DNA from: Blastocatellia bacterium
Lineage (GTDB): Bacteria > Acidobacteriota > Blastocatellia > UBA7656
Length of the DNA: 24,000 nt
NCBI GenBank assembly: GCA_035558335.1
Contig: DATMCM010000680.1
Coordinates: 1 to 24,000 of the forward strand
Direction of reading: 5' to 3'
The notes below the pieces were generated by a model. It ran no database searches. It was given only the letters and a program-made list of their open reading frames with translations, and was not told the DNA's origin. Positions 4,084 to 21,985 of this stretch are shown piece by piece. The position numbers and the translations under genes are program-made. Position 1 is the stretch's first letter, and the number at the start of each line of letters is the position of its first letter.

Positions 4084-4191
<108 letters not shown>

Positions 4192-4668: not shown

Positions 4669-5694
4669 ATGAAGCTCTCCAGCAAGCTGAGAATTTACTC
4701 GCGCGAGCTTGCCTTTATGGCAAAGGGGTTACGGTCAACCGACCACCCCATTTTGGCCCACATCATACCGATTCGGCGGTGCAATTTGGCTTGCGCTTAC
4801 TGCAATGAATACGACGACTATTCGAAGCCGGTGCCGCTCGAAGTCATGTTCCGGCGATTGGATAAGCTGGCTGATCTGGGAACGACTGCAATCATCATTA
4901 GCGGCGGCGAACCGCTGATGCATCCGGAGATCGAAGCGATCATCAAGAAGATTCGACAGCGCGGGATGCTCGCGTGTCTCATAACGAACGGATACCTGCT
5001 GACTCAGGAGAAGATCTTAAAGCTCAACAAGGCGGGTCTGGAGTACATGCAGATCAGCATCGACAACGTACAGCCGGACGATGTCTCCAAGAAGAGCCTG
5101 AAAGTATTGGACAGGAAGCTTGAGTGGCTTTCACGGCTTGCTGAGTTTCGCGTGAACATTAACTCGGTGATCGGCGGTGGAATCAAAACTCCCGAAGACG
5201 CTTTAACTGTAGGTCGGCGCGCGGTCGAGTTGGGTCTCTCGAGTTCGCTCGGAATCATCCACGATGGACTCGGGACGCTAAAACCCCTCAAGGGTGTTGA
5301 GCGGGACATCTATTTCAAGATGAAGGGTCTGGGCAAGAAGGGACACACCAGGATTAACCGGTTTCAGAAAAACCTGGTTGACGGCAAGCCCAACGATTGG
5401 CGATGCCGCGCTGGAGCTCGTTACCTCTACATCTGCGAAGATGGGCTGGTGCATTACTGCTCGCAGCAACGCGGTTATCCGGCGGTGCCGCTCGAGAGTT
5501 ACACGGTGGAAGACATACGCCGCGAATATCTGACCAAGAAGGCTTGCGCCGACTACTGCACTATCGCGTGCGTTCATCAGGTTGCGACCTTCGACAACTG
5601 GCGCGATCCGCAGACGCTCGGGGTCAAGGGCGCGGTTCAGCGCGAAGCGGTCCAGGCGATTCAGACCCTGTACCAAATCGAACAGACCGAATAA
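4669..5694 (+). CDS. Radical SAM enzyme with a Cys-rich C-terminal (SPASM/twitch-like) region; substrate unknown
   Basis: 341-aa ORF. Canonical CxxxCxxC motif [18 protein letters not shown] (approx 4781-4804), followed by the GGEPL SAM-binding motif ([13 protein letters not shown]). The C-terminus has extra cysteines ([21 protein letters not shown]...[12 protein letters not shown]). No clear SD sequence; an alternative start is at 4717 (MAKGL). Confidence 0.85.
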
Positions 5695-5801: not shown

Positions 5802-7886
5802 ATGCATAAGCCAACGAAATATGTGGAGAAGGGATTGGCCGTCGCGGCTAACGTTGCGTGGCACATTTACGAGCCGCTCAATCGCATCAAACAGAATCCG
5901 TCCTTCACGCCAAAGTGGTCGGAAAAGCCGCTGCTAAAGTCCTATCAAAAGACAAAACCGCCGCTGGGCTGGCCTCGCACAACCGATTCGCTGTGTCCAA
6001 AGTGCATCCCTGAAATCCGCCAGCAGATCGTTGACGGCAAACTGCCGCACCAGATCCTGCTCAACGAAAAGATAGGCGAGATTAAGGCCCAGATCATCGA
6101 GCGTGACGGCAAGATCCTGATGGTCAAGGACTGCGAGAAACACGGCCACTTCGAAGATGTTATGTCGATCGATCCGGCGTTCTTCAAGCACCTCGAAGAG
6201 GTGTTCCCCGGCCGCGACATTCGCGCGCACAACGACGAAAAGCTCCATAATCATGGATCAAGCACAGTCAAGCACGGTCGCGGCTCAGTGCTCACCGTAG
6301 ACCTGACCAACCGATGCAACATGATGTGCGACCCGTGTTTCATGGACGCAAATCAGGTCGGGTTCGTACACGAGTTGAGCTGGGAAGACATCAAGACGCT
6401 GTTGGAAAACGCCATCTCGATAAAGCCGCGGCGGCAGATGTCGGTTCAGTTTTCTGGCGGCGAGCCGACGTTGTCGCCGTACTTTCTTGACGCGGTGCGT
6501 TACGCGCGCAAGGTGGGTTACAACAGCGTGCAAGCCGCCACTAACGGAATCGAGTTCGCCAAGAGTCCTGAGTTCTGCATGCAGGCAGCCGAAGCCGGCT
6601 TGCGCTACGCCTATCTCCAGTTCGATGGCATTGGCAACGCCGCGAATGAGCATCGCAAAGTCGGAAACCTGTTCGACGTGAAGCTCCGCGCGATTGAGAA
6701 CCTCCACGGCGCCGGCGTCGAGATTGTGCCGGTGACCACCATAATCAACGGAATTAACAACGAGCAGGTCGGACGCATCATAAAGTTCGCGCTCGACAAC
6801 CCGAAGAAGATCTCGTTCCTGTCGTTCCAGCCCGTTTCATTCACCGGCCGGGACGAGGAGATAACCGACGATCGCCGGAACGCCCAGCGATACACGCTGT
6901 CGCACATGGCGCACGACGTGAAGAATCAGACCGGTCTTGGCGAGCCGAACCGCGACTGGTTCCCGATCTCTTTCATGGGGACTTTCTCGGATTGGGCCGA
7001 CCTCGTCCACGGTCCGGAGGGCGACTGGGGTCAGTTGAACTGCGGCTGCCATCCGAACTGCGGAATCGGAATGGCGCTCATGATCGACAAGGAGACGAAG
7101 GAGTCGGCTCCAGTTACCGCTTTCCTCGACGCTGAGCAGTTCGCCAAAGACCTGATGAAGGTTAATGACGCGGCTCGTGGAAAGAAGCTGTCTTTGTTGG
7201 GCGCCGGGCTGGCGCTCTTACGCAACTATGATCCGTTCATGGCGCCTACGCACTTCCGCATCAAAGATCTGATGATGAAGTTTGACAAATCGTTCGGGGC
7301 GTCGGGCAAGGACTACGGCAAGGTTTCGGGCGAAAGAACCGTCGAAGACATCCAGAAGCGTCGCGCCGATCGATGGAACTTCCTGTTTATCGCCGGAATG
7401 TGGTTCCAGGATCTGTTCAACTACGACTTCCGCCGCACCGAACAATGCATCATTCCATACGCGACTCAGGAAGGGGAGATCTCATTCTGCGCGTACAACA
7501 CCGGTGTAGGCTGGCGCAACATCATCGAAAAGATGCACATGACGGCTACGCTCACCAAGTGGTACGAAGAGAACGGACGGCACGAGATTTTCGCCGGCGG
7601 CAAGAGCGTCGCGCTCAACAGCACGGCTCACTCGCTAAAGCTGGACGAGTCGATCATAACCAACGAGGTTCAGCACGACCTGGACTCGCTTGGAATTGCT
7701 AAGAACGCTCGCGAAGAAAAACAGCGCGCACGCGCGATGAAGCTCAGCGATGCGGAGAACGAGCGCATGGCGAAGCTCTACCGGCAGCATATCCTCAAGG
7801 AGCCGGCAACGCCCGACACGCAAATCGTGCAGCTTCAGCTCAAGAAGGCGAAGCCCGAAAGCGCGCCGGCGGGTTTCGGGGACTAG
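5802..7886 (+). CDS. Large radical SAM protein, Tes/GDGT-MAS-like (class D radical SAM family; candidate membrane-spanning lipid synthase)
   Basis: 694-aa ORF with SD AGGAGAGAG 8-16 nt upstream. N-terminal zinc-ribbon or rubredoxin-like motif SLCPKC...KDCEKHGH embedded in IKAQIIERDGKILMVKDCEKHGHFEDV. Radical SAM motif LTNRCNMMCDPCFMD (approx 6303-6345), GGEPTL, and a C-terminal cluster motif QLNCGCHPNCGIG. The family call rests on my recollection of the MJ0619-type N-terminal architecture. It has not been verified by search. Confidence 0.8.
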   Translation: MHKPTKYVEKGLAVAANVAWHIYEPLNRIKQNPSFTPKWSEKPLLKSYQKTKPPLGWPRTTDSLCPKCIPEIRQQIVDGKLPHQILLNEKIGEIKAQIIERDGKILMVKDCEKHGHFEDVMSIDPAFFKHLEEVFPGRDIRAHNDEKLHNHGSSTVKHGRGSVLTVDLTNRCNMMCDPCFMDANQVGFVHELSWEDIKTLLENAISIKPRRQMSVQFSGGEPTLSPYFLDAVRYARKVGYNSVQAATNGIEFAKSPEFCMQAAEAGLRYAYLQFDGIGNAANEHRKVGNLFDVKLRAIENLHGAGVEIVPVTTIINGINNEQVGRIIKFALDNPKKISFLSFQPVSFTGRDEEITDDRRNAQRYTLSHMAHDVKNQTGLGEPNRDWFPISFMGTFSDWADLVHGPEGDWGQLNCGCHPNCGIGMALMIDKETKESAPVTAFLDAEQFAKDLMKVNDAARGKKLSLLGAGLALLRNYDPFMAPTHFRIKDLMMKFDKSFGASGKDYGKVSGERTVEDIQKRRADRWNFLFIAGMWFQDLFNYDFRRTEQCIIPYATQEGEISFCAYNTGVGWRNIIEKMHMTATLTKWYEENGRHEIFAGGKSVALNSTAHSLKLDESIITNEVQHDLDSLGIAKNAREEKQRARAMKLSDAENERMAKLYRQHILKEPATPDTQIVQLQLKKAKPESAPAGFGD

Positions 7887-7908
7887 TTCCACGAGCATCG
7901 ACCAATCC

Positions 7909-7946
7909 AAGGGCCGTCGCAGCTATAAAGCTTCGACGGCCTTTGC
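7909..7946 (+). terminator. Stem-loop terminator candidate after the radical SAM cassette
   Basis: GGCCGTCG (7912-7919) and CGACGGCC (7934-7941) form a perfect 8-bp stem with a 14-nt loop. It is flanked by A-rich and T-rich bases (aag...ttt), about 25 nt after the stop at 7886. Confidence 0.5.
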
Positions 7947-8080
7947 TAATTGCGCGGTGTACTGGCACCATCTTGTCCGCCTTCGATATACTTGCCGCTC
8001 GGTTCGGAGCTCAAGCTCTCAGGTCATTTGCTCGCCGCATTTCCGTGCCCAAGAACTTCTCTTTTTTGCGAGGTAGAAGC

Positions 8081-11000
8081 GTGCTTAGAAATATGCAGAT
8101 CTCCACCCTGGTGCTGTCTTTGTCCATCGCTGCATCAGCTCGCTTTTCCCAGCCGTCGCAAGAGGTTTCAAAACAGGAAGCTCAAAACCAAGATGCTCAG
8201 AAGAAGAATGAACCGTGGGATGTCGAAGGGGATCATGGACCATTCACACTCGTCGAATTCGACACCGACGAAGGCACATGGATGAGCTGCGACGTATCGC
8301 CGGATGGTCAATGGATCGTCTTCGATCTTCTCGGCGACATCTACAAAATGCCGATCGGCGGCGGCAAGGCAGAACTTCTCTCCGCCGGAGCGTCGTGGGA
8401 ATGCCAGCCCAGGTTCAGTCCCGACGGCAAACTGATCGCCTTCACTTCTGATCGTGATGGCGGCGACAACATCTGGGTTATGGAAGCGGACGGCAGGAAC
8501 CGCAGACAAGTAACCAAAGAGAACTACCGCCTGGTGAACAGCCCTGCCTGGACGCCCGATGGTCAATACATTCTCGTCCGAAAACATTTCGTCGATCAGC
8601 GCTCGCTAGGGGCGGGCGAGATTTGGATGTACCACGTCAACGGCGGAGGCACAGGCGTTCAGTTGACGGAGAAGCCCAACTGGACTGCCAATGCTGGCGA
8701 GCCGGCAATCGATCCAAGGGGCCGGTTCGTCTATTTCGTACAAAGCACTGCATTCGACTACAACAAGAATGTCTACGGAAGCATCTACTGGATCGAGCGC
8801 TACGACACGGCCAATGGCCGGCGCTCTGTCTTTGTTCAGGGTTCTGGTGGAGCAATTCGGCCGCAGGTCTCACCCGATGGGAAGTTCCTCTCTTTTATTC
8901 GGCGGGATGGATTGAAGACTGTCCTGTTCCTGCGCGAGATCGAAAGCGGTCGCGAGTGGCCGATCTACGACAACCTCTCGCGCGATCAGCAGGAGACGTG
9001 GGCCGTATTCGGAACTCATCCCGGTTATTCGTGGACGCCCGACGGCAACAGCATCATCATCACAGCCAAGGGAAAGTTTGTGCGAGTCCCGACGCGTACC
9101 AGACAGGCGCCTCAGTGGATTCCATTCACCGCTCACGTTTCCCAGAAGGTCACCAACGCCGTCCGTTTCGAGCAGAAAGTCGCACCGGATCGCGACAGCG
9201 CGAAACTCTTGCGATGGGCAAAGAGTGCGGGCGGTCGAATCCTTTACAGCGCCCTCGGCAAGCTCTACGTCAAGCAAGGCGATGCCGCTCCCAAACGATT
9301 GCTGAGCACAAACTACCTCGAGTTCGCGCCCAGCTTCAGCGCCGACGGGTCCAGGATCACGTACGTGACCTGGTCGGACTCGGAGAAGGGCGCGGTGTGG
9401 ATCGCGAATGCGGACGGCTCCGGTGCGCGAAAGATCACATCCATTGGCGATCAGTACTCGAATCCGGTCTTTTCGCCGGACGGCACCAAGGTCGCTTATC
9501 TCAAAGGGCGCGGGAGTGTTTACCACGAAGAGGACCTCGCGAGCGAGTCGACCTTCGAGATTCACTACTGGGATGGCTCCGAGCACCGCTACGTCATCGA
9601 CCTTTTTAGCCGGGGCCCGAACGCGCGAATGCCGGTTCTCACCTTCGACTCGAAAGGCGATCGCATCTTTTTCATGGAATCGAAGCCCAGCGCGGGGACA
9701 GTCAACACCTACCTCAGCAGCGTGAAGCTCACAGGCGATGACTATAAACAGCATGTGGAGTCGAAATACGCGGCCGAAATGGTGCCATCGCCGGACGGCC
9801 GATGGGTCGCGTTCAAGGAATTGCACAAGCTCTACGTTGCGCCGTTCCCGCTTACTGGAAAAATGCTCAAGCTCTCGGCGACCGACACAATCGTCCCGGT
9901 TAAGCTCGTTTCAGCGAAGTCGGGCGACTGGCTCACCTGGTCGCGGGACAGCAAGTCGGTCGAGTGGACGCTCGGCGAAAACTTTTACGAACAATCGCTC
10001 GACAACGTCTTCAAACAACTGGCTAAGGATCAGAAACCGACCGAGCCAGGAGTCACAAAGATCGGCTTCGAGTTCGAGAGCGCGAAGCCGCACGGTTTGA
10101 TAGCGCTCACCAATGCTCGCATCATCACGATGAAAGGCGATGAAGTCATCGAGCGCGGCAACATCCTCATCGAGGACAACAGAGTCAAGGCTATTGGCGC
10201 GAGTATCGACATCCCAACCAACGCCCGCCGGATAGACATGACGGGGAAAACGATTATGCCCGGGCTCATCGATGTGCACGCGCACATGGGCTATTTCGCG
10301 TTGGATATCGTTCCGGAAAAGCAGTGGCCTTACTTCGCGAACCTTGCGTACGGGGTGACGACCACTCATGATCCGTCGGCTTCAACGCAAACAGTCTTCG
10401 CCCAGTCGGAGATGGTAAAGGCGGGCGCGATGGTTGGCCCGCGCATTTTTTCTACTGGCTACATCCTCTACGGCGCCGAGAATGCCGAGAAGGCGGTGAT
10501 CAACAGCTACGACGACGCGAGAGCACACCTCGAGCGGCTGAAGGCGGCAGGCGCGTTTAGTGTGAAGAGCTACAATCAGCCTCGTCGCAACCAGCGTCAG
10601 CAAGTGATCAAGGCCGCTCGCGATCTTCAGATGATGGTAGTTCCCGAAGGCGGATCGACTTATTTCTATAACATGACCGAAGTGCTGGACGGACACACCG
10701 GCATAGAGCACGCGATCCCAGTCGCGCCGCTGTATAAGGACGCGACCACGCTGTTCGCGAGGAGCCGGAGCGGCTACACGCCGACTTTGATCGTGGGCTA
10801 CGGTGGAATCTGGGGAGAGAATTATTGGTATCAGCACTCGAACGTTTGGGAGAACGAGCACCTGATGCGCTTTACACCGCGCAGCGTGGTTGACGAGCGG
10901 GCGCGCCGGCGAATGATGGTTCCCGAAGACGACTTCTATCACTTCGAGTTGGCGAAGAGCGTGAAAGACGTGCTTCGCGCGGGAGGCAAAGTTCAGCTCG

Positions 11001-11320
11001 GCGCGCACGGCCAGCTTCAAGGTCTTGGCGCTCATTGGGAGCTTTGGATGCTGGCGCAGGGTGGTCTGACTCCGATTGAGGCGATCCGTTGCGCCACGCT
11101 CTCCGGGGCGCAATACCTCGGGTTGGACAATGATGTCGGCTCGCTTGAAGCGGGTAAGCTCGCGGACTTGATGGTGCTAGACAGGAACCCGCTCGAGAAC
11201 ATCCGCAATTCCGAGAGCATCCGCTTGGTGATGATCAACGGAGTGCTCTACGACACGAGCAACATGGACCAGGTGTACCCTCTGCAGCAGGCGAGGTCCA
11301 AGTTCTTTTGGGAGAGGTAA
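8081..11320 (+). CDS. Secreted PD40/TolB-like beta-propeller fused to a C-terminal metal-dependent amidohydrolase domain
   Basis: ORF 7943-11320. The likely start is GTG 8081 (GAGG 6-7 nt upstream) or ATG 8093, giving the signal peptide MQISTLVLSLSIAASA. There are many PD40-like repeats (SPDGQWIVF, FSPDGKLIAFTSDRDG..NIWVM, SPDGKFLSFIR, FSADGSRITYV, FSPDGTKVAYL, PSPDGRWVAF). The C-terminal amidohydrolase has PGLIDVHAHMGY (HxH), GHTGIEHAIP and GKLADLMVLDRNPLENI. The long ORFs 8623-9609(+) and 8870-9826(-) are shadow frames. Confidence 0.85.
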   Translation: MLRNMQISTLVLSLSIAASARFSQPSQEVSKQEAQNQDAQKKNEPWDVEGDHGPFTLVEFDTDEGTWMSCDVSPDGQWIVFDLLGDIYKMPIGGGKAELLSAGASWECQPRFSPDGKLIAFTSDRDGGDNIWVMEADGRNRRQVTKENYRLVNSPAWTPDGQYILVRKHFVDQRSLGAGEIWMYHVNGGGTGVQLTEKPNWTANAGEPAIDPRGRFVYFVQSTAFDYNKNVYGSIYWIERYDTANGRRSVFVQGSGGAIRPQVSPDGKFLSFIRRDGLKTVLFLREIESGREWPIYDNLSRDQQETWAVFGTHPGYSWTPDGNSIIITAKGKFVRVPTRTRQAPQWIPFTAHVSQKVTNAVRFEQKVAPDRDSAKLLRWAKSAGGRILYSALGKLYVKQGDAAPKRLLSTNYLEFAPSFSADGSRITYVTWSDSEKGAVWIANADGSGARKITSIGDQYSNPVFSPDGTKVAYLKGRGSVYHEEDLASESTFEIHYWDGSEHRYVIDLFSRGPNARMPVLTFDSKGDRIFFMESKPSAGTVNTYLSSVKLTGDDYKQHVESKYAAEMVPSPDGRWVAFKELHKLYVAPFPLTGKMLKLSATDTIVPVKLVSAKSGDWLTWSRDSKSVEWTLGENFYEQSLDNVFKQLAKDQKPTEPGVTKIGFEFESAKPHGLIALTNARIITMKGDEVIERGNILIEDNRVKAIGASIDIPTNARRIDMTGKTIMPGLIDVHAHMGYFALDIVPEKQWPYFANLAYGVTTTHDPSASTQTVFAQSEMVKAGAMVGPRIFSTGYILYGAENAEKAVINSYDDARAHLERLKAAGAFSVKSYNQPRRNQRQQVIKAARDLQMMVVPEGGSTYFYNMTEVLDGHTGIEHAIPVAPLYKDATTLFARSRSGYTPTLIVGYGGIWGENYWYQHSNVWENEHLMRFTPRSVVDERARRRMMVPEDDFYHFELAKSVKDVLRAGGKVQLGAHGQLQGLGAHWELWMLAQGGLTPIEAIRCATLSGAQYLGLDNDVGSLEAGKLADLMVLDRNPLENIRNSESIRLVMINGVLYDTSNMDQVYPLQQARSKFFWER

Positions 11321-11341
11321 TAGATTCGTGATCCTGAGTGG

Positions 11342-11368
11342 ATAGAACGGCAGGCCGCCTCGTTCTAT
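11342..11368. terminator. Hairpin between convergent genes (possible bidirectional terminator)
   Basis: ATAGAACG (11342-11349) and CGTTCTAT (11361-11368) form a perfect 8-bp stem with a GC-rich 11-nt loop. It lies 22 nt after the amidohydrolase stop and overlaps the stop of the minus-strand small ORF. Confidence 0.4.
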
Positions 11369-11565
11369 AGACTCCCAGCCAGACTCCGAAGCGCGTCGAG
11401 GCCATCGGCATCGACTAAACGGAAGTCGGCTTCTCCTGAACGGTAGTCGATCAGGAGATGGAACTCACCCGCGATTATGTCTTCGGTAGGAAGCTCGCGG
11501 TTAGCGAGCATTTCAAGCAGCGGTAACGGGTCATGACGGAAGGTAACAATCCGCACAAATGCCAT
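11365..11565 (-). CDS. Small hypothetical protein (66 aa), no family recognised
   Basis: ORF 11365-11568. ATG at 11565 has GGTGA 6 nt upstream. Codon usage resembles the neighbours. The product is acidic (MAFVRIVTFRHDPLPLLEMLANRELPTEDIIAGEFHLLIDY...). No motif that I can name. Confidence 0.35.
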   Translation of the reverse strand: MAFVRIVTFRHDPLPLLEMLANRELPTEDIIAGEFHLLIDYRSGEADFRLVDADGLDALRSLAGSL

Positions 11566-11797
11566 CACAGGTCACCGATTATTATTAGGCCTCACTTCAA
11601 AGTCAACCGGTAAACCGTCGAAAACAGTCTGAATAACCCATTCAAAACAATGGGGACGATAACAGTTCAGACTCGGTCCGAGGAGGAGCACGATATGCAG
11701 ATGTAAGTTATATATCATGCTCAAAGCTGGCTGTGTCTATCCGGGAGTCATCAACGGCCTTGAAAGACATGCCACCACCGCGCAATCATAGTCGCCG

Positions 11798-13209
11798 ATG
11801 CCTAACCCACGAGTCCTGATTATTGACGACGAAGAGATGATCCGTTGGACGCTTACAGAAGCGCTTCGAGGATGGGGCTACACGTCCGTTGGTGTCGGTA
11901 CCGTGGCAGCCGGGCTTGCGGCGTTCGACGCCGAGCGGCCTGACGCCGTCCTGTTGGATGTCAACCTGCCAGATGGCACTGGGCTCGATCTGCTGCTGGC
12001 GATCAAGCGTCACCAGCCGGATGCGGTAGTCATCATAATGACCGGGAATGTGACTGTGGCTGATACGATCGCTGCGCTTCGCGGCGGCGCGTACGACTTC
12101 ATCAGCAAGCCGATCAATCTGGAGGAGCTTCAAGTTACAATTCGCAACGGCATGGAAGCTCAATCGCTCCGCAAACAGGTGCGGTCAATTCGAGGCGAGC
12201 GAGCCCGCAAGTTTAGCTTGAACCAAATCATCGGCCAATCACCAGGTATGGTCGAGATGTTCAACCTCGCGCGCAAGGTGGCCGAAAGCGAGGTCTCTTC
12301 CGTGCTCCTGCAAGGGGAGTCCGGGACGGGCAAGGATTTGGTTGCGAAGGCCATTCACTACGCATCACGTCGCTCAGATGCTCCGTTCGTAGCTATCAAT
12401 TGTGCAGCGCTTCCGGCGACCCTCATAGAGAGTGAGTTGTTCGGCTATGAGAAGGGCGCCTTCACAGACGCGAAGGCGCGAAAGGAAGGGCTCTTCGAGC
12501 AAGCGGAGGGCGGCACTCTCTTTCTGGATGAAATCGGCGAGCTAGAGTTGAGCCTGCAAGCGAAACTCTTACGCGTTCTCGAAGAGGGAGCCTTTCGCCG
12601 ACTCGGCGGGCTGAAGGACATATCGCTCGACGCCCGGGTGATCGCGGCGTCGAACCGAAATCTGAAAGCCGCGAGCGAAACAGGCCGTTTCCGACTCGAT
12701 CTTTACTACCGGCTCTCGGTCATTCAAATCGATATTCCGGCCATACGCGAGCGAGGCGACGACGTGATTCTGCTTGCCGAGCACTACATCGCGCACTTCA
12801 ACGAGCGGCTGCGAAAGCAAGTGCACGGACTGAGGCCTGAGGTCGCCGATATTTTTCGAAGCTACGCGTGGCCCGGAAACGTGCGAGAGCTTCGAAACGT
12901 GATCGAACGCGTTATGATCCTGGAAGACGGGGATGTGATCACGCCGCTTATTTGCCACGGGGAATCACGCCCGAGGACAAGAACGCAACTGTGGTTGGGA
13001 ACTCGGTTGCTCGGAGGACGGACGATGAGCCTCGCGCTAGTGAGTTCGCGCTTCCCGCGAACGGCGTCGTGCTGGACGACGTGGAGATGTCGCTCGTCCG
13101 GCAGGCGCTGGAGCGAAGTGGTGGAAATCAAACTCGCGCTGCTGAGTTGTTGGGCATCTCACGTGACCAATTCCGCTACCGGCTAAAAAAGCTCGAAGAT
13201 CAGGCCTGA
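11798..13209 (+). pseudogene. NtrC-family sigma54-dependent response regulator (REC + AAA+ + Fis-type HTH), with the reading frame broken near 12941-12955
   Basis: REC domain: [11 protein letters not shown]...[13 protein letters not shown]...[13 protein letters not shown]+ domain: Walker [16 protein letters not shown], sigma54-contact loop EKGAFTDA (a GAFTGA variant), Walker [24 protein letters not shown]. After ...LEDGDVITP this frame turns to nonsense ([13 protein letters not shown]...). The frame of ORF 12868-13209 continues correctly: [11 protein letters not shown]...[41 protein letters not shown] (Fis-type HTH). This implies a 1-nt indel. Confidence 0.8.
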
Positions 13210-13222
13210 TTCCAGTAACCCC

Positions 13223-13319
13223 TTCCGGTCCACAAGCCGATTCCCCTCCACTGCGTATTTCTCCGCTGAGGGATAGACAGATTCAGGCAAATTTACCAGT
13301 TCCGGTTCACAAGCCGTTC
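13223..13319 (+). promoter_or_regulatory. Pair of about 20-bp direct repeats (candidate enhancer/UAS sites for the adjacent sigma54 activator)
   Basis: TTCCGGTCCACAAGCCGATT (13223-13242) and TTCCGGTTCACAAGCCGTTC (13300-13319) match at 17 of 20 positions, with starts 77 bp apart. Each contains a small CGGY-N6-RCCG dyad. They sit just upstream of the -24/-12 promoter. Confidence 0.45.
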
Positions 13320-13337
13320 AATCAACACCCTTTCCAG

Positions 13338-13354
13338 CGGCACGCACGTTGCTT
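13338..13354 (+). promoter_or_regulatory. Sigma54 (-24/-12) promoter upstream of the tandem USP gene
   Basis: CGGCACGCACGTTGCTT matches the consensus TGGCACG-N4-TTGCW at every core position. GG is at 13339-13340 and GC at 13351-13352, exactly 10 nt apart. It lies immediately downstream of a sigma54 activator gene. Confidence 0.7.
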
Positions 13355-13364
13355 TTGACACACG

Positions 13365-14345
13365 ATGAACGTCGGGGCGAGACAGCGTCGTCGGACCACG
13401 GCGCCTAACCAGGTCATGTCAGTAGCGAGCTTAAGCCGTATGGTCATCCAGGAGCGCACCACCTTCGAGCGCATTTTGTGTCCAGTCGATTTGATCGCGG
13501 ATTCCGTCGAGGCTTTGCATTACGCGGCAACATTCGCCCGAGCTTGTGGAGCAAAGCTCTTAATCTGTCACTGCCGCGATTCGGCGGAAGCGGGAGGGTT
13601 AATGGAAGCGCGGAGCATAATGGACTCGCTCGACGGGATGGTAGAACAAGCCGTAGCCGAGACGAGGGGACTCCGGGAGAGCTTCGTGGTAGACGGCGAT
13701 CCGGTTGTCGCAATTCCTCGCGTTGCGGCCGACAGACGTATCGATTTGATAGTGATGCGTTCAAGAAGGTGGCAGCATCCGCCGTCTCTAATGGGTTCGA
13801 TAGCCGAAGCAATCAGCCGGATGTCTCCTTGTCCGGTGCTGATAATTCACTCGCAGAAGCGGGAGCCGAACGAGTCGAAGATTGGCTTGCCGCTGCGGCG
13901 AGTGCTGGTTGCATATGACTTTTCGAGCGATGCCGAGCTGGCTCTGTCATATGGGTTGAACCTTTCGCACAAGCATGGAGCCGAAATGCATTTGCTGCAT
14001 ACTCTACCGGCCCGGCTAAAGACCGATGCACCGGAGTTGGCGATGTTGCCGTTGAGTTCCCGGCTGGGATTCGATGAGATCAAGGCTCGGCTGCGAAGCG
14101 CGGTCTCCGGGCCAACGGGTTTGAGGGTTGCGGTAAGGCACGAAGTGCGGGAAGGCCAGCCGTATCGGGAGGTGCTGAACTATGCGGAGGAGCAGGCGAT
14201 CGACTTGATATGCATGGGCGCGAGCGGGACTGGGTTCGGGCTGCACGCGCTCTTCGGCTCGAATGCCGACCGGGTGCTTCGTCAAGCTCGGTGTCCGGTG
14301 ATAATCGCGCGCCCGCTCAGACCGAGTTTGCCCGCAACGAGTTGA
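13365..14345 (+). CDS. Tandem universal stress protein (two UspA domains)
   Basis: 326-aa ORF with two USP units: ILCPVDL...LLICHC...IDLIVMRSRR...SIAEAISRMSPCPVLII, and RVLVAYDFS...EMHLLHT...IDLICMGASGTGFG...GSNADRVLRQARCPVIIARP. The predicted sigma54 transcription start near 13364 argues for a downstream start codon (ATG 13416 or 13440). Confidence 0.85.
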   Translation: MNVGARQRRRTTAPNQVMSVASLSRMVIQERTTFERILCPVDLIADSVEALHYAATFARACGAKLLICHCRDSAEAGGLMEARSIMDSLDGMVEQAVAETRGLRESFVVDGDPVVAIPRVAADRRIDLIVMRSRRWQHPPSLMGSIAEAISRMSPCPVLIIHSQKREPNESKIGLPLRRVLVAYDFSSDAELALSYGLNLSHKHGAEMHLLHTLPARLKTDAPELAMLPLSSRLGFDEIKARLRSAVSGPTGLRVAVRHEVREGQPYREVLNYAEEQAIDLICMGASGTGFGLHALFGSNADRVLRQARCPVIIARPLRPSLPATS

Positions 14346-14353
14346 ACGCGGCT

Positions 14354-14369
14354 CGGTGGTAGACTTGCA
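14354..14369 (+). promoter_or_regulatory. Second, weaker sigma54-type -24/-12 candidate upstream of the single-domain USP gene
   Basis: CGGTGGTAGACTTGCA has GG at 14355-14356 and GC at 14367-14368, 10 nt apart. The -12 element TTGCA is perfect and the -24 element is degenerate. It lies about 30 nt upstream of ATG 14399. Confidence 0.4.
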
Positions 14370-14398
14370 TGGAGAGCACTGATAAACGAGGAGGTGCA

Positions 14399-14872
14399 AT
14401 GATGAAGATACTGCTAGCGGTAGATGGCTCGGAATTCAGCGATGCGGCAGTCGACGAAGTCGCCCGCAGGCCGTGGCCTGAGGCAACTGAGATAGACGTT
14501 CTGGCGGTGTACGAGCCGCCCGCATTACCTGCGACGGAAACCTGGGTGCTTCCTCAGAACTATTACAACGAGATGGAGAAGGCGAGCCAGGAACAGGTGC
14601 GCGACGCAACAAACAACGCTGTCGAGCGACTAGGCAAGGCGCATAGCAAACTACAAATCAACAGCGAAACCGCGCGAGGCTATCCGGCTGAAGTGATTCT
14701 CGACCGTGCGAATCGAATGGAGACAGACTTGATCGTAGTTGGATCACACGGCTACAGCGGCCTAAGGCGCTTCCTGTTGGGCTCCGTTTCCCTGAACGTG
14801 GCGTCACACGCGAATTGCTCTGTCGAGATAGTGCGCGTGAAAGAGACACGCAAGAGGAAGCAAAACCCGTGA
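14399..14872 (+). CDS. Universal stress protein (single UspA domain)
   Basis: ORF 14369-14872. ATG 14399 is preceded by GAGGAGG (14388-14394). MMKILLAVDGSEFSDAAV...DLIVVGSHGYSGLRRFLLGSVSLNVASHANCSVEIVR is a canonical USP. Confidence 0.9.
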   Translation: MMKILLAVDGSEFSDAAVDEVARRPWPEATEIDVLAVYEPPALPATETWVLPQNYYNEMEKASQEQVRDATNNAVERLGKAHSKLQINSETARGYPAEVILDRANRMETDLIVVGSHGYSGLRRFLLGSVSLNVASHANCSVEIVRVKETRKRKQNP

Positions 14873-14916
14873 CCGCGCCGTTGAGAACAAGAACCAGTCG
14901 AATCGGTCGGGAGTAA

Positions 14917-15339
14917 GTGATGATAAAGCCACTCAGCAAAGAACAAACGCGCACGCTGCTGCTGGAAGGCAGAGTAGGGCGCCTCGGTTGTGTGGAAGGA
15001 AGTAAGCCGTACGTGGTGCCGGTGAGCTATGTCCTTCATGATGAGAGCATCTACGTTCACTCACTGGTTGGGCGCAAGATTCGCGCAATGCGCGAAAACC
15101 CGAACGCCTGTCTTCAGGTGGATGAAATCAAAGACGACTGCCACTGGCGAAGCGCGATAGCTTTCGGGCCGTATTAGGAAGTCACGAACGAACAGGAGCG
15201 AAACTGGGCACTGCGGCGTCTACTCTCGCGGTTTCCCGACCTCACACCGGTAGAATCGGTCCCGGTGCACGATGGCCAGTCTTCGGTCATCGTGTTTCGG
15301 ATTCGTATTGACGAGATGAGCGGCGTAGCCGAAGGATAG
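14917..15339 (+). pseudogene. Pyridoxamine 5'-phosphate oxidase-like (PNPOx/Pyridox_ox_2, NimA-related) flavoprotein interrupted by an in-frame TAG at 15175-15177
   Basis: ORF 14917-15177 (86 aa) ends ...WRSAIAFGPY*. The same frame continues open as EVTNEQERNWALRRLLSRFPDLTPVESVPVHDGQSSVIVFRIRIDEMSGVAEG* to 15339. It aligns without gaps to the intact paralogue at 19216-19743 (..QWMTVVVCGRYEELPDTPEY..), which places the TAG opposite a Glu codon. Confidence 0.75.
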
Positions 15340-15638
15340 AACCCACAAGGTTCTTTATCAGGCCTTGACAGCCCTCTTGGCGCCAAGCCTGATCGCGCGG
15401 CGGCTGTTGCTGGTGTCGGATTTCCATCGCTTACCTGTCCCAACATTCCTATCTAGTACAATATTCCAAAAGATTCTTGGGAACTTGATCGTAAGCACAG
15501 CGCGGCGTTCGTGTAGGTGTTGGATATCAGGAGGTTCGGTGCCAACGTGAGTTCCGCTTGTAGACCGCGTTTGAGGCGTCGTACGATTGGCAGCGCCTCA
15601 AGACTCGATGTTAGCTGGGGGCAATCACCGTCCGACAA

Positions 15639-17930
15639 GTGGGTCGAATGAAAGAAGTGCATACTGATCACGACGGCAATCTGCTTTCAGCGATCCTGGA
15701 TTCGACGGCAGCGTTGATCTTAGTCCTGGATCGCGAGGGACGCATTGTTCGCTTCAATCGCGCGTGCGAAGAAGCGACGGGCTACTCCTTCGTTGAGGTA
15801 AGCGGTCGCTTTTTGTGGGACTTCTTTCCAGCGTACGAGCAGGCAGAGCCTGCCAAGACGGCGGTCCGCGCAATTCACGAAACTCGAAGCGCGATCCGTT
15901 TCCAGCATCACTGGCTTTCCAAGAACGGAGAGATCCGCCTGCTAGCGTGGACTGGCGAGCCCTTGCCGTCGCCTGATCGGAATGCTGATCTGGCAATCCT
16001 CTTGGGCCTGGATTTTCCAGAGCGCGGACCGGCTCAAGCGGCTTCGCGGCAGGATCAGGCACAGTTGGCAAGCATTATCGAATCGGCCATGGATTCGATA
16101 ATAATAATAGACCGCGATCAAAACATCGTCCTTTTCAATGCGGCCGCGGAGAGGATGTTCCAATGTCCGGCGGCGTCGGCGATCGGAAAGCCAATCGACC
16201 AATTCATCCCCGCGCGATTCCGAGCGGCACATCGGGACCACGTCAGCCAGTTCGATCGGACCAGTGTTACAAGGCGTCAGATGGGCCAGCTGGGAGCGAT
16301 CTGGGGGGTCAGGCGGGACGGCGCAGAGTTTCCGATCGAGGCCTCAATCTCACAAACCGAAGTAGACGGCGAGAAGTTCTTCACCGTGATCATCCGCGAC
16401 ATCACCCAGCGCAAGCGCTCCGAGGAGCAACTTCGCGAACAGGCAGAGTTCCTTGACGGCGCATCAGACGCGATTATCGTTCGCGACTTGCAGGACCGCA
16501 TCATTTACTGGAACAGAGGCGCCGAGCGGCTGTACGGTTGGAGTGCGGCGGAATCGGTCGGTGTCAGCATCCAAGAGCTCTACTATCAAGAGGCCACACC
16601 TCAGTTCGAAGAAGCTAACCAAATCCTACTGAAAGAAGGTAAATGGGCAGGACACGCTAGGCACTTGACAAAGGATCGCAGACATATCGATGTCGAAACG
16701 AGATTGACACTGATGCGTGACGGCGAGGGCAATCCGAAGTCAGTGCTTGTGATCAACACCGACGTTACGGAACGGAAGAAGCTCGAAGCTCAGTTCCTCC
16801 GCGCGCAGCGAATGGAGAGCATCGGAACTCTGGCGGGTGGGATCGCTCACGACATAAACAACATCCTGTCTCCGATTCTTCTCGCAGTTCGAATGCTTCA
16901 GATGAAGTTCCAGGATGAAGATAGTCAACGACTACTTTCGGTGCTTCACCAGAGCGCGGAACGTGGTGGCGTGATGGTGAAGCAGGTGTTGGAATTCGCC
17001 CGAGGCGTTGAGGGCGAACGCATCGTCCTTCAACTGAACCATCTCATCAAGGAAATCACCAAGACCCTCGCCGAAACGTTCCCAAAATCAATCGCAGTCG
17101 AGTGCTTTGTGCCTGCCGATGTGTGGTCGGTTACCGGCGATCCGACGCAGATACATCAGGTTTTGCTGAACCTCTGCCTGAACGCCCGCGACGCGATGCC
17201 GCGAGGCGGCGTACTGTCGGTCAAGGCTGAAAACGTCTCGATCGACGAGAGCTATGCCCAGATGATAATCGATGCAAGACCTGGGAGCTTCGTTCTCGTT
17301 AGCGTCACGGATACAGGAACAGGAATCCCGGCCGAGATCTTAAACCGGGTGTTCGAACCGTTTTTCACGACAAAGGAGCACGGCAAGGGAACCGGTCTGG
17401 GACTGTCGACCGTGTTGGGCATCGTGAAAAGCCATGGCGGATTCATCAATGTGTACAGCGAGATCGGTAGGGGAAGTCAGTTCAGGCTCTATTTTCCGGC
17501 GGCTGAATCGCCTCTAACAGCTCAGGCCCGGGACGAACGCGTCGATGTTTCACGCGGTCACGGTGAGTTGGTCCTTGTCGTCGACGATGAAGCGGCTATC
17601 AGAGAAATCACAAGAAGCACTCTCGAAACGTTCGGCTACTCCGCGCTCACCGCTAGCGATGGAACCGAGGCGATAGCTCTTTATGCTCAGAACAAAGATG
17701 CGATCGATGTCGTCCTGACCGACATGATGATGCCTTACCTGGACGGAACGGCGACAATTCGAGCCCTCCAGAGGATCAACCCGCGAGTGAAGATAATCGC
17801 CAGCACCGGACTTACCGACGACGGCAAGTCAGCCGAAGCCGCAGAGCTGGGCGTGAAGTCGTTTTTGTCGAAACCTTACACCGCTGAGGAGCTAATGAGT
17901 GCGCTCGCAGAAATCCTCGCCAGAAACTGA
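15639..17930 (+). CDS. Hybrid sensor histidine kinase: three PAS domains + HisKA + HATPase_c + C-terminal receiver
   Basis: 763-aa ORF. PAS-like units: LLSAILDSTAALILVLDREGRIVRFNRACEE, LASIIESAMDSIIIIDRDQNIVLFNAAAERMF, AEFLDGASDAIIVRDLQDRIIYWNRGAERLYGW. H-box: SIGTLAGGIAHDINNIL. N box: LLNLCLNARDAM. G boxes: DTGTGIP and GKGTGLGLS. Receiver: LVLVVDDE...VVLTDMMMPYLDG...LSKPY. The start is GTG 15639 or ATG 15648. Confidence 0.9.
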   Translation: MGRMKEVHTDHDGNLLSAILDSTAALILVLDREGRIVRFNRACEEATGYSFVEVSGRFLWDFFPAYEQAEPAKTAVRAIHETRSAIRFQHHWLSKNGEIRLLAWTGEPLPSPDRNADLAILLGLDFPERGPAQAASRQDQAQLASIIESAMDSIIIIDRDQNIVLFNAAAERMFQCPAASAIGKPIDQFIPARFRAAHRDHVSQFDRTSVTRRQMGQLGAIWGVRRDGAEFPIEASISQTEVDGEKFFTVIIRDITQRKRSEEQLREQAEFLDGASDAIIVRDLQDRIIYWNRGAERLYGWSAAESVGVSIQELYYQEATPQFEEANQILLKEGKWAGHARHLTKDRRHIDVETRLTLMRDGEGNPKSVLVINTDVTERKKLEAQFLRAQRMESIGTLAGGIAHDINNILSPILLAVRMLQMKFQDEDSQRLLSVLHQSAERGGVMVKQVLEFARGVEGERIVLQLNHLIKEITKTLAETFPKSIAVECFVPADVWSVTGDPTQIHQVLLNLCLNARDAMPRGGVLSVKAENVSIDESYAQMIIDARPGSFVLVSVTDTGTGIPAEILNRVFEPFFTTKEHGKGTGLGLSTVLGIVKSHGGFINVYSEIGRGSQFRLYFPAAESPLTAQARDERVDVSRGHGELVLVVDDEAAIREITRSTLETFGYSALTASDGTEAIALYAQNKDAIDVVLTDMMMPYLDGTATIRALQRINPRVKIIASTGLTDDGKSAEAAELGVKSFLSKPYTAEELMSALAEILARN

Positions 17931-17954
17931 CAATCACTCGCTTCGTTCAAAGCT

Positions 17955-19088
17955 TTAGGGTAGTTTCCAGAGCCGCACTATCTTGTCACCTCCGCCTGAA
18001 AGAGCGAACTTCCCGTCTTGTGAAAATGCTACGTCAGTGATCCACGGGGTTTTTGCATCGAAACGATAGAGTTCAACTCCCTTGCTTACATCCCACAACC
18101 GAATTGACTGATCGAAGCTCGCGGACAGAGCGCGGGAGCCGTCCGGCGAAAACGCAACTGCGCGCACAACACTGAGTCCCTGTTGCACCTTCCATCGTCT
18201 CTGTTCCTTTCCGCTTTCAACGTCCCAGACGCGCATCGTACCGTCGGTACTCCCGGAGAGAATGAGTCTGCCATCAGGTGAAAAGGCGACACCGGTCACA
18301 GGCTTGGTGTGACCTTCAAAACGCCGCAGCTCCTTCCCTTCGCTAAGATCCCAGAGTAGCATCGTCCCATCGTGGCTCGAGGAAATAACAGACCGGCCTT
18401 GTGGAGAAAACGCTACCTGAGTGATTCGGTTCGTGTGACCCTCGAATCGGCGTAGCTCCTTGCCGGTAGCTGCATCCCACACCCGAACGCTCTTGTCGTT
18501 GCTGCCTGAGACCACCTGAAGCCCATCAGGTGAGAAGGCCGCAACGGTAACTGATCGCAAGTGCCCCTTTATGAGTTGTATTTGCTTCCCGCTCTCCGTA
18601 GTCCACAGCCTTATGGTCTTGTCCAGACCGGCCGAGAGGACGCGCCGTCCGTCAGGGGAAAAGCAAACGCTCGTGATCGGGCGTGTGTGGCCCACGAAGC
18701 GACGCCGTTCCTTCCTATCCTCGACCCCCCACAATCTGATGGTGTCATCAGAACTGCCCGAGAGAGCGAGGCAGCCGTTTAGTGAGAAGGCCACGCTTGT
18801 AATCCAGTCCGTATGACCTTCAAAGCTTCCGACTGCACCCACTGGAAGGCGGTCGTCTGCTGGACATTGTTGTAGCGGCTCCGCGGGCTCGGCTGAAAGC
18901 CACCATGCCGGATGCGCAGGCTGGCTGCGGGTTGAATACAAGAAAGCCCCCGGTGTTGCGGTGCCACAAATCAGAACCGCCATAATGAGTGCCGCTCGTA
19001 CGATGCCCTGCAGCCACGCCGATAAAGAAGGGTGGTTCGGACCTGAACTCTGCGAGTATCTTGCTCTGGAGTCTCTGCTGATAGCCAT
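17955..19088 (-). CDS. Membrane-anchored or secreted seven-bladed WD40 repeat protein
   Basis: 377-aa ORF with an N-terminal hydrophobic segment (IVRAALIMAVLICGTA). Seven units of about 42 aa each follow the pattern GHTxxITSVAFSPDGxxxLSGSxDxTxRLWDxxxGKELRRF. Confidence 0.9.
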   Translation of the reverse strand: MAISRDSRARYSQSSGPNHPSLSAWLQGIVRAALIMAVLICGTATPGAFLYSTRSQPAHPAWWLSAEPAEPLQQCPADDRLPVGAVGSFEGHTDWITSVAFSLNGCLALSGSSDDTIRLWGVEDRKERRRFVGHTRPITSVCFSPDGRRVLSAGLDKTIRLWTTESGKQIQLIKGHLRSVTVAAFSPDGLQVVSGSNDKSVRVWDAATGKELRRFEGHTNRITQVAFSPQGRSVISSSHDGTMLLWDLSEGKELRRFEGHTKPVTGVAFSPDGRLILSGSTDGTMRVWDVESGKEQRRWKVQQGLSVVRAVAFSPDGSRALSASFDQSIRLWDVSKGVELYRFDAKTPWITDVAFSQDGKFALSGGGDKIVRLWKLP

Positions 19089-19215
19089 CCTTTGACCAGT
19101 GCATCGCGAGTATCGAGCAAGGAAATGCCGTTTGCAACCCAGGAAATGGAAATGGGATCGATCCAGCTTGTTTCAGAAACCGTCAGACCCGAGCCCCGGC
19201 AGGTCGATCAATGCT

Positions 19216-19743
19216 CTAATTTGTCAGGAAGCGGTTTAGCAACCGGCTCATCCACCTCCGAGTCTTGGCAGGTGGGGCAGGATGAACTTCAACTAGATCG
19301 GGCGACGCCTGGCGTCCAGTCAATTGACCTATGTGGATGCGGTAGAATATCGGCGCCATCGATTCAGGATACTCCCGATTCGCAACCGTTGCACAAGCAG
19401 GCTCCCACCACATAGCGCGACTTTGTAACAGCTCATGGGCATGGGCGCGAAGCGCTTTGTATTCAGGTGTATCCGGCAACTCCTCGTATCTGCCGCAGAC
19501 AACAACAGTCATCCATTGATTCTGGCTTTTGATTTCATCAATCTCCACACAGACTAGGGGATTCGCGCGCATACAATCGATCTTATAGCCCATAGTGGAG
19601 AAGCCGAAAAGGCATTTGCCATCGTAAATCATATAGACCGGAACAGCGTACGGCTGACCGTCCATCTCGCAGGCCAATCTTGCGAGGGTCGCTCTCGTGA
19701 GGGCGTCCTGGCATTCCTCAAACGTCATCTCATGGATCAACAT
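19216..19743 (-). CDS. Pyridoxamine 5'-phosphate oxidase-like (Pyridox_ox_2/NimA-related) flavin-binding protein, intact paralogue
   Basis: 175-aa ORF with ATG 19743 preceded by AGGGG. It is colinear with the 14917 gene (ARLACEMDGQPYAVPVYMIYDG...CMRANPLVCVEIDEIKSQNQW) and carries an extra basic tail of about 30 aa at the C-terminus. Confidence 0.85.
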   Translation of the reverse strand: MLIHEMTFEECQDALTRATLARLACEMDGQPYAVPVYMIYDGKCLFGFSTMGYKIDCMRANPLVCVEIDEIKSQNQWMTVVVCGRYEELPDTPEYKALRAHAHELLQSRAMWWEPACATVANREYPESMAPIFYRIHIGQLTGRQASPDLVEVHPAPPAKTRRWMSRLLNRFLTN

Positions 19744-20156
19744 CGCAACCCCTAGCTCGTGCGCGATACGTTTTTTTCCAGGGTCCGTTGAGAGACTCCC
19801 GATCGCGCGTGATCAGTCTGGTGGTTCTCACAGCCATCCATTACTGGCCGTCCGCAAAATTGACCACGCTCCTGACCACCAGACCTACTGCAAACTCTAT
19901 TCCCTCAGACAACCCGAAGGCGCAAAGTAACTAGTCGTGCGGCGGACCATATGGCGACCTGCTTATGCGGAAATTCTCGCATCAGTTTGCGTGAAAGCAC
20001 GCTAAGGTCTGGGCTCGAGTGACCCTACGACAAACTCGACAGGAAATGTTGCTGAACTGTTGTTTGACCGATTGGGTATGTGGTTTGCCGTTACAATCTG
20101 TATGTCGGCGGGGAGATGACTACCTTGCCGTTTCAGCGGCAGAGTTGGAGGTCGAA

Positions 20157-21221: not shown

Positions 21222-21286
21222 TTAATGTTCTCACTATCCATTGCGGCTTGGAGAAATGTAACCGTGGCCGAATCGCTCTTCTAACG

Positions 21287-21841: not shown

Positions 21842-21985
21842 CGGTTGATCCCTTTCCCACCGCCGCATTTCCGCGCGCACTTTCACCGGAATTCGGGCTA
21901 ATGAGGCGAGCGGAATCGGCTTCCCGTCATATCCATTGGCAGCTCGCCGCTGTACGCAGCAGCCGCGGGTAAGATATCCCGCCGG

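Follow-up and report, generated by a model that had tools for sequence, protein, structure and literature searches.

The window analyzed here is the whole 24,000-bp stretch of contig DATMCM010000680.1 from a Blastocatellia bacterium (GenBank assembly GCA_035558335.1), and the gene in question, at positions 5802 to 7886, encodes a 694-residue radical S-adenosylmethionine (SAM) protein. By its sequence, this protein is a member of the Tes/GDGT-MAS lineage of tetraether lipid synthases, in a separate paralogous subfamily that keeps high identity across the Acidobacteriota. The subfamily lacks the N-terminal auxiliary iron-sulfur cluster of Tes, its acidobacterial members carry an extension at each end, and it lies at the edge of the cutoffs in common use. 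We refer to this subfamily as cluster-less, to its member in the window as the Tes-like protein, and to Tes proteins that have the cluster as canonical. By analogy with GDGT-MAS, and at about an even chance in our judgment, the enzyme would join the terminal carbons of two iso-C15 membrane glycerolipid chains tail to tail, giving products of the iso-diabolic type.

That Acidobacteria carry Tes homologues, and that these may serve branched glycerol dialkyl glycerol tetraether (brGDGT) synthesis, was noted in a first-pass annotation of the window and had been in print since 2022, when Zeng et al. reported 456 bacterial Tes homologues including Acidobacteria and proposed a brGDGT role (PMC8941075); the idea has been discussed routinely since. 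The Koribacter and Solibacter homologues are 40-42% identical, and one homologue only, with 32% identity, is present in E. aggregans, a producer of iso-diabolic acid and brGDGT-Ia (PMC8941075). Also in 2022, Sahonero-Canavesi et al. described Mss, another radical SAM enzyme, which makes (iso-)diabolic acids in anaerobes and whose activity was shown by expression in E. coli, only under anaerobic conditions (PMC13159169). The same work found no mss homologues in Acidobacteria, and nearly all cultured species of subdivisions 1, 3, 4 and 6 make iso-diabolic acid (PMC13159169). When Edaphobacter is grown aerobically, this acid contributes 12-30% of its fatty acids, and it is a primary fatty acid in Chloracidobacterium, a Blastocatellia genus.

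The Tes-like protein is homologous to Tes/GDGT-MAS

The gene is an intact open reading frame with an ATG start, one terminal stop, and a purine-rich ribosome-binding stretch, GGAGAGAGAG, just 5′ of the start. The motifs listed in the first-pass annotation are all in place: SLCPKC at residue 63, CEKHGH at 111, CNMMCDPC at 172-179, GGEPTL at 219, and NCGCHPNCG at 413. There are twelve cysteines (65, 68, 111, 172, 176, 179, 259, 414, 416, 420, 549 and 563), and three of them, not two as was counted, lie outside these motifs. C549 and C563 align to GDGT-MAS cluster ligands and are invariant in the orthologues; C259 is variable, and is Cys in 50 of the 76 orthologues compared. The Acidobacteria-like context that had been supposed is the true one, as the gene lies in an acidobacterial genome and a protein 100% identical to its product is on record from a Blastocatellia (Acidobacteria subdivision 4) metagenome-assembled genome (MAG).

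Homology to Tes/GDGT-MAS is firmly supported by sequence, profile and predicted fold. Pfam assigns residues 168-330 to Radical_SAM (E 8.7e-19) and residues 58-122 to Zn_ribbon_HMPTM (HMPTM/MJ0619-type, E 2.4e-12), and the best NCBIfam model is the tetraether lipid synthase Tes (NF045702; E 1e-94, 317.8 bits, residues 61-580). The closest solved structure in a sequence search of the Protein Data Bank (PDB) is GDGT-MAS (7TOL/7TOM; E 1e-61, query residues 93-577), with MoaA following at E 6e-5. AlphaFold2, given an alignment of 28 sequences, produced a model with a mean predicted local distance difference test score (pLDDT) of 84.5 and a predicted template modeling score (pTM) of 0.85. In Foldseek this model matches 7TOM and 7TOL at E 3.5e-38 and 8e-37 with target TM scores of 0.86-0.87 over about 560 columns, and the 562 columns aligned to 7TOM take in the four-domain GDGT-MAS fold. 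Other PDB fold matches are to the radical SAM core only (MoaA, E around 5e-9, TM around 0.5), and a low-confidence segment of the model lies where the N-cluster domain would sit. The family search that had been proposed as a check and the Foldseek comparison of the AlphaFold model thus both lead to Tes/GDGT-MAS, and to no unrelated radical SAM family.

The Tes-like protein falls outside canonical Tes, because its whole-protein hidden Markov model (HMM) score is 318 bits against an equivalog cutoff of 450 for NF045702, and because the ligands of the N-terminal cluster are missing; of the earlier reading of the gene as a Tes homologue, the lineage therefore stands and simple equivalence does not. 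The second-best NCBIfam match, TrsS (NF045646), scores 209.9 bits against a cutoff of 490, which places the protein outside that family, and is confined to residues 92-378 in the N-terminal half. What is held in common with TrsS is this half, with its zinc-ribbon and radical SAM parts, whereas in its C-terminal cluster domain the protein agrees with Tes and not with TrsS.

Three of the four Tes metal sites are retained

GDGT-MAS has four metallocofactors, a rubredoxin-like Fe, an N-terminal [4Fe-4S] cluster, the SAM cluster, and a C-terminal [4Fe-4S] cluster (Lloyd et al., PMC9433317). Their ligands were mapped through a HMMER alignment to 7TOL, whose PDB chain bears a 20-residue tag. All proposed ligands of the three sites that are kept are invariant in the 76 orthologues. 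The rubredoxin-like iron of MJ0619 is held by C9, C12, C33 and H36 (PMC9433317). C33 and H36 align to C111 and H114, and C65 and C68 are the counterparts of C9 and C12 by motif and by the Pfam zinc-ribbon match, the 7TOL alignment beginning at residue 93; this CX2C...CX2H set is found in 76 of 76 orthologues. The spacer of the rubredoxin knuckle is 42 residues long here against 20 in MJ0619, a 22-residue insertion. The CX3CX2C motif of the SAM cluster is C172/C176/C179. The loop of MJ0619 that closes over 5′-deoxyadenosine through Q268, S271 and R275 (PMC9433317) has its counterpart in the nonapeptide FQPVSFTGR, identical in the two proteins, with Q343, S346 and R350 at these positions and likewise invariant. 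In the C-terminal cluster, C338, C455 and C470 of MJ0619 align to C420, C549 and C563. Its labile ligand Met439 and the accompanying Tyr459, both fully conserved among 1000 archaeal homologues (PMC9433317), align to M533 and Y553; all five residues are present in 76 of 76 orthologues, with roles assigned by the 7TOL alignment. Two extra cysteines in this domain, C414 and C416, are kept in 75.

The N-terminal [4Fe-4S] cluster differs. Its ligands in MJ0619 are C73, C77, C80 and a His (PMC9433317), and opposite these three cysteines the Tes-like protein has a gap, S153 and T155; its residues 112-171, which separate C111 from C172, include no Cys. With no Cys at these positions, the enzyme can, as judged from its sequence, hold at most three of the four Tes cofactors. 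The several metal sites of the first-pass annotation accordingly come to three by their motifs and fall short of the four of GDGT-MAS, and the conservation of auxiliary ligands that it had named as a check extends to the rubredoxin site and the C-terminal cluster and not to the N-terminal one. The loop that replaces the cluster motif (residues 134-162) is modeled with pLDDT below 55, yet is almost invariant across the 76 orthologues, in which H143, H149 and H151 are each kept in 75. A possible role for this conserved, Cys-free and His-bearing loop is to bind a metal as a substitute site, or to make contacts.

Cluster-less and canonical types are coexisting paralogues

Among 1.84 billion 50%-identity representatives, which were searched exhaustively, 624 proteins had E below 1e-30. 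When the full-length representatives were aligned, the cluster motif CPxxCGxCxxH was missing wherever identity to the query reached 37% and occurred, with few exceptions, wherever it was 36% or less, as it does in MJ0619. The two groups also separate in a midpoint-rooted neighbor-joining tree, and their Tes HMM scores are 219-414 bits for the cluster-less and 447-645 bits for the canonical group. A longer rubredoxin-knuckle spacer is a tendency of the cluster-less group, and its acidobacterial members have the added 60-residue N-terminal and 109-residue C-terminal extensions. C416 is common in both groups and thus not diagnostic.

The two types are coexisting paralogues, because both occur in one genome, an Acidobacteriaceae MAG (locus L058). 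There, a cluster-less gene (6001-8106, 319.8 bits) is followed on the same strand, 2.2 kb downstream, by a canonical Tes (10337-12019). The 560-residue product of the canonical gene scores 578 bits and shows 44% identity to MJ0619, with CPDDCGLCGMH as its cluster motif and a rubredoxin spacer of 20 residues. PPK2 and OmpA-like genes are found between the two. The paralogues at this locus probably differ in substrate or step. Their coexistence fits the report of two Tes homologues in S. usitatus (Halamka et al., PMC10087280), and a literature search found no description of a separate conserved acidobacterial paralogue without the N-terminal cluster.

Canonical bacterial Tes proteins, as in Ca. 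Koribacter versatilis, Ca. Solibacter usitatus and L058, come from the same phylum and have the same proposed iso-diabolic tetraester/brGDGT pathway, but they have CPxxCGxCxxH, the 20-residue spacer, a length of about 560 residues, and a score that passes the cutoff, in all of which they differ from the Tes-like protein. Archaeal GDGT-MAS/Tes (MJ0619, 7TOL/7TOM; MA_1486; NF045702) has the same fold, Fe site, SAM cluster, C-terminal ligands and 5′-deoxyadenosine loop. Compared with MJ0619, the Tes-like protein has 32% BLASTP identity, no N-terminal cluster, the knuckle insertion and both extensions, and its host is a bacterium with iso-branched fatty acids on glycerol-3-phosphate.

The N-terminal extension begins with a helix (residues 3-27, pLDDT about 79-95) that is predicted to be amphipathic. 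The highest hydrophobic moment of the protein falls here, at residues 12-32, the first 64 residues have a net charge of +7, and residues 31-60 are 85% identical in the 76 orthologues; the aligned canonical Tes representatives have no N-terminal extension of this kind. No transmembrane segment is predicted in the Tes-like protein, the maximum 19-residue Kyte-Doolittle mean being 1.08. Helix moment and charge fit a peripheral binding of the enzyme to the membrane, as far as sequence properties can indicate.

The C-terminal tail past the Tes-homologous core had been described as Lys/Glu-rich, 100 residues long and foreign to the archaeal proteins. It is K/E-rich, and neither MJ0619 nor the aligned canonical Tes representatives have it, but it is 109 residues long (586-694) with a net charge of 0 (K11/E11/R6/D6). 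After a conserved KWYEENGRHEIFAGG segment the linker is variable; two helices rich in K/E/R (636-663) come next, and the end is disordered. The tail is real and, from the alignment of orthologues, partly under selection, because residues 571-600 (94% identity) and 631-660, with the K/E-rich helices (70%), are conserved and residues 601-630 (43%) and 661-690 (29%) are variable.

The subfamily is widespread in Acidobacteriota

A scan of GTDB with one genome per species returned at least 599 matches, a number that is no measure of the cluster-less clade, since canonical Tes can be picked up by the same search pattern. The best 80 were examined and are all from Acidobacteriota, with 75-91% identity to the Tes-like protein. 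They span Blastocatellia (subdivision 4), Acidobacteriaceae, Terracidiphilus and other Terriglobia (subdivision 1), Bryobacterales (subdivision 3, about 78% identity), Vicinamibacterales (subdivision 6) and Ca. Sulfotelmatobacter, and include two subdivision-1 isolates, Acidipila rosea DSM 103428 and Granulicella aggregans M8UP14. Some 90%-identity clusters have hundreds to thousands of metagenomic members. Within the core, most 30-residue blocks are 82-98% identical among the 76 orthologues, with 65-76% over residues 421-510.

The orthologues are about 29-32% (29.4-32%) identical to MJ0619 at about 217 bits, and 72 of the 76 reach 30%; this is the same level as that of the E. aggregans homologue. 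Joint Genome Institute (JGI) labels name many of them HMPTM ('7,8-dihydro-6-hydroxymethylpterin dimethyltransferase') and some 'tetraether lipid synthase'.

Proposed reaction and the evidence for and against it

Homology, fold, ligand map and distribution were computed, and from these we infer the substrate, the product and each step of the mechanism. By analogy with GDGT-MAS, the CX3CX2C cluster (C172/C176/C179) would cleave SAM, and the 5′-deoxyadenosyl radical would abstract a hydrogen from the end of one lipid tail. The tail radical would then be stored on a sulfide that belongs to the C-terminal [4Fe-4S] cluster, whose ligands are C420/C549/C563 and the labile M533, with Y553 nearby, and a second SAM cleavage would activate the second tail for formation of the C-C bond. 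The CxxC...CxxH iron site (C65/C68/C111/H114) would relay electrons. The expected cofactor content is two [4Fe-4S] clusters and one mononuclear iron, with no N-terminal auxiliary cluster. Ester-bound acyl chains are the probable substrates, with alkyl ethers as a further possibility, and the products would be membrane-spanning lipids of the iso-diabolic-acid type, which is the skeleton of brGDGTs. The enzyme is probably soluble and membrane-peripheral, and the N-terminal amphipathic helix and the charged C-terminal helices may aid its binding to the membrane or to a partner.

A radical C-C coupling of the same kind as in GDGT-MAS is proposed because the catalytic apparatus is kept, chiefly the C-terminal cluster with its Met and Tyr, and this cluster is the place where GDGT-MAS forms a lipid-sulfur intermediate (PMC9433317). 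That every residue linked to catalysis in GDGT-MAS is kept, and invariant in the 76 orthologues, counts in favor of it. Coupling of iso-C15 chains is the most economical choice, because conservation across subdivisions 1, 3, 4 and 6 matches the occurrence of iso-diabolic acid and mss is lacking, and an ester substrate is plausible because GDGT-MAS itself binds ester-linked phosphatidic acid (PMC9433317).

Several observations weigh against iso-C15 coupling: one of the four Tes metallocofactors is missing, the score of 317.8 bits lies below the Tes equivalog cutoff, a canonical Tes shares a genome with a cluster-less gene in L058, and no lipid-synthesis gene is consistently adjacent in the 85 loci compared. 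TrsS and related families show that the scaffold has other uses. Tes homologues were reported in only 3 of 14 iso-diabolic-acid-producing Acidobacteria, at E <=1e-50 and identity >=30% (PMC13159169), and our search of reviews and surveys up to 2026 found no experimental confirmation of any bacterial Tes homologue. The count of 3 in 14 is not simply blamed on thresholds, because 72 of the 76 orthologues reach 30% identity to MJ0619; an artefact of this kind is weakly supported, near as the orthologues lie to the cutoffs. The view that no bacterial enzyme of this kind has been demonstrated needs amending for Mss, shown by heterologous expression (PMC13159169), and holds for the bacterial Tes homologues, for which the evidence is correlative only (PMC11868695). 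As cited in the relevant passage of a 2026 paper, Chen et al. 2025 reportedly tied iso-diabolic tetraesters in Ca. K. versatilis to a Tes homologue on its own, and brGDGTs in S. usitatus to Tes together with Ger; evidence on bacterial Tes homologues, this work included, is still correlative in that passage (PMC13023045). Mss of Thermotoga and Thermoanaerobacter performs the very reaction proposed, in which a radical SAM enzyme joins fatty acyl chains tail to tail into (iso-)diabolic acid, but is of a different radical SAM family according to its discoverers, the published description being what sets it apart here, and its hosts are anaerobes without Tes homologues, with Acidobacteria lacking mss (PMC13159169).

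Fold and catalytic residues would be the same if the protein were a plain bacterial orthologue of archaeal Tes, acting on two iso-C15 dialkyl glycerol diethers to give a branched glycerol trialkyl glycerol tetraether (brGTGT) and then brGDGT, as in the pathway model for S. usitatus. Halamka et al. propose that 'one or both' of the S. usitatus homologues act on diethers (PMC10087280), and the Bryobacterales do carry the clade. Yet the score below the equivalog cutoff, and the existence of a true Tes-type paralogue (578 bits, CPxxCGxCxxH) that can adjoin the cluster-less gene, make this unlikely; taxa of the clade are moreover reported with mainly ester- or monoether-bound iso-diabolic acid and few or no tetraethers, and the top matches of Koribacter and Solibacter, at 40-42%, are of the canonical type (PMC8941075). 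It is also improbable that the enzyme acts on lipid tails by some other radical reaction beside a canonical Tes or another synthase, for example intramolecular macrocyclization, just one of the two couplings, or a mid-chain cross-link. GDGT-MAS does make both macrocyclic archaeol and GDGT (PMC9433317), and coexisting paralogues, together with a second radical SAM gene fixed alongside in Blastocatellia, suggest a division of labor; but the known acidobacterial lipids require no such product on the scale of a phylum, and the strict retention of the Met, the Tyr and the C-terminal cluster argues for the same sulfur-adduct coupling.

The substrate might instead lie outside membrane lipids, being a cofactor, as in the legacy pterin annotation, a peptide, or another hydrophobic metabolite. 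This would agree with the HMPTM names of many orthologues, the different role of the related TrsS family, a genomic neighborhood without lipid signal, and the divergence from Tes shown by the lost cluster and added extensions. The pterin methylase activity of MJ0619 was not reproduced, however (PMC9433317), and the 'class D radical SAM' label used in the first-pass annotation belongs to that older assignment, which Lloyd et al. did not corroborate (PMC9433317). With TrsS at 210 bits against its cutoff of 490, and the whole GDGT-MAS fold retained including the C-terminal domain (target TM 0.86-0.87), we regard a non-lipid substrate as doubtful.

It may further be that the cluster-less subfamily, rather than Mss or canonical Tes, is the iso-diabolic-acid synthase of aerobic Acidobacteria, in a streamlined form with two [4Fe-4S] clusters and one iron, a suggestion that we put forward tentatively and as somewhat short of an even chance. 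Such a synthase would dispense with the surface-exposed cluster, its gene would be the one by which to trace the soil producers of brGDGT precursors, and the canonical paralogue and the adjacent radical SAM enzyme of Blastocatellia would take later or alternative steps.

Gene organization and neighborhood

The features of the Tes-like gene and of its upstream neighbor are listed in Table 1. The upstream radical SAM gene is a lineage-specific partner of the Tes-like gene: in 7 of 7 Blastocatellia-type loci it lies directly 5′, 47-184 bp away, and in other classes no copy occurs within 6 kb except at a subdivision-1 locus (L063), where the partner is downstream. At least 15 contigs are common to the hit lists of the two proteins. 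No terminator-like site is present in the 107-bp gap between the pair in the window, and promoter and terminator scans are at background level. The upstream protein has a radical SAM cluster motif at C38/C42/C45 followed by C246/C256/C264/C293/C297/C301, and its model (pLDDT 69.7) has only generic PDB fold matches, to MoaA, BlsE, SkfB and PqqE.

Reports of gms-tes clusters in Acidobacteria prompted a comparison with Gms/Hbs, the synthase of glycerol monoalkyl glycerol tetraethers (GMGTs), which has an extended AhbD-like SPASM architecture with an N-terminal COG4001 domain, radical SAM cysteines at about 123/127, and two fully Cys-ligated auxiliary clusters. The upstream protein was not accepted as a Gms/Hbs, on architecture alone: a radical SAM motif that starts at residue 38 of 341 leaves no room for the N-terminal domain, and there are only six C-terminal cysteines. 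An AhbD HMM gives 52 bits, in the N-terminal third, and the Pfam, NCBIfam, PDB sequence and fold searches gave only generic matches.

Table 1. Coordinates in the window of the Tes-like gene, its parts and the upstream radical SAM gene
Feature	Position	Strand	Basis or content
Upstream radical SAM gene, 341 residues, SPASM/twitch-like C-terminal Cys set	4669..5694	+	Pfam Radical_SAM and Fer4_12
Tes-like radical SAM gene, 694 residues, acidobacterial subfamily without N-terminal auxiliary cluster	5802..7886	+	Open reading frame, NCBIfam Tes, 7TOL match, AlphaFold2 model
N-terminal extension, residues 1-60	5802..5981	+	AlphaFold2 helix 3-27, then conserved extended segment 31-60
Rubredoxin-like zinc-ribbon, C65-x2-C68 ... 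C111-x2-H114	5982..6167	+	Pfam Zn_ribbon_HMPTM 58-122; 7TOL alignment
Cys-free loop, residues 134-162, replacing the GDGT-MAS N-terminal [4Fe-4S] motif CPxxCGxCxxH	6201..6287	+	Alignments
Radical SAM core, residues 163-350	6288..6851	+	Pfam Radical_SAM 168-330; C172/C176/C179, GGEPT 219-223, FQPVSFTGR loop
C-terminal auxiliary-cluster domain, residues 405-580	7014..7541	+	C420, C549, C563, M533, Y553; extra C414, C416
C-terminal extension, residues 586-694	7557..7883	+	KWYEENGRHEIFAGG segment, variable linker, K/E/R-rich helices, disordered end

Open reading frames were clustered from the 85 loci, and apart from the Blastocatellia radical SAM pair no neighbor is conserved beyond close relatives in them, so that gene neighborhood was dropped as a guide to function. 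The recurrent neighbors are housekeeping genes, namely MutY-like, RlpA-like and QueG. At L011 (10720-13083) and three similar Terriglobales loci, a fatty-acyl-reductase-like gene (HAD, NAD_binding_4, Sterile) is found about 2.6 kb downstream, which hints weakly at a connection with the metabolism of ether or alcohol lipids. In Blastocatellia bacterium AA13 (L002-L004, 2912-5422), an 836-residue AMP-binding and acyltransferase protein (Aas-like) is encoded about 1.5 kb 5′ of the radical SAM pair.

Elsewhere in the window, where G+C is even at 0.53-0.59, a tRNA-His (GTG) gene at 4116-4191 (+) lies in a 780-bp non-coding stretch between a divergent TPR gene and the radical SAM pair. Immediately 3′ of the Tes-like gene, at 7943-11320 (+), is a gene for a 1125-residue PD40 beta-propeller and amidohydrolase protein, which is found in the same place in one other locus (L001) and not in other lineages. 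The region 11798-21886 encodes sensing and stress functions, including a sigma-54 response regulator, two universal stress proteins, a PAS hybrid histidine kinase and a seven-blade WD40 protein, as well as a PNPOx-like protein, a Zn-dependent dehydrogenase and a hemerythrin; this run is not conserved beside the Tes-like gene in other genomes. None of these other window genes (PD40-amidohydrolase, sigma-54 regulator, universal stress proteins, PAS kinase, hemerythrin) shows a lipid link.

Significance

brGDGTs are among the most used proxies for continental palaeotemperature and pH, and the makers of the iso-diabolic skeleton in aerobic soils are not established, as Mss explains anaerobes only. 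Bacterial Tes homologues as makers of brGDGT precursors have been an established subject of discussion since 2022, and what is added here is a distinct three-cofactor subfamily. Acidobacteria carry two Tes-type paralogues, and the cluster-less one falls under annotation cutoffs and at the thresholds of earlier surveys. It is plausible, by analogy, that the Tes-like gene makes the iso-diabolic lipids behind the brGDGT proxies. The weight of the finding is moderate, in that it sharpens an open, testable question and is no surprise in itself. The paralogue pair gives experimenters precise genes and metagenome surveys a sharper marker, and a Tes variant that naturally lacks the N-terminal cluster would reveal which of the metallocofactors are needed for C-C coupling.

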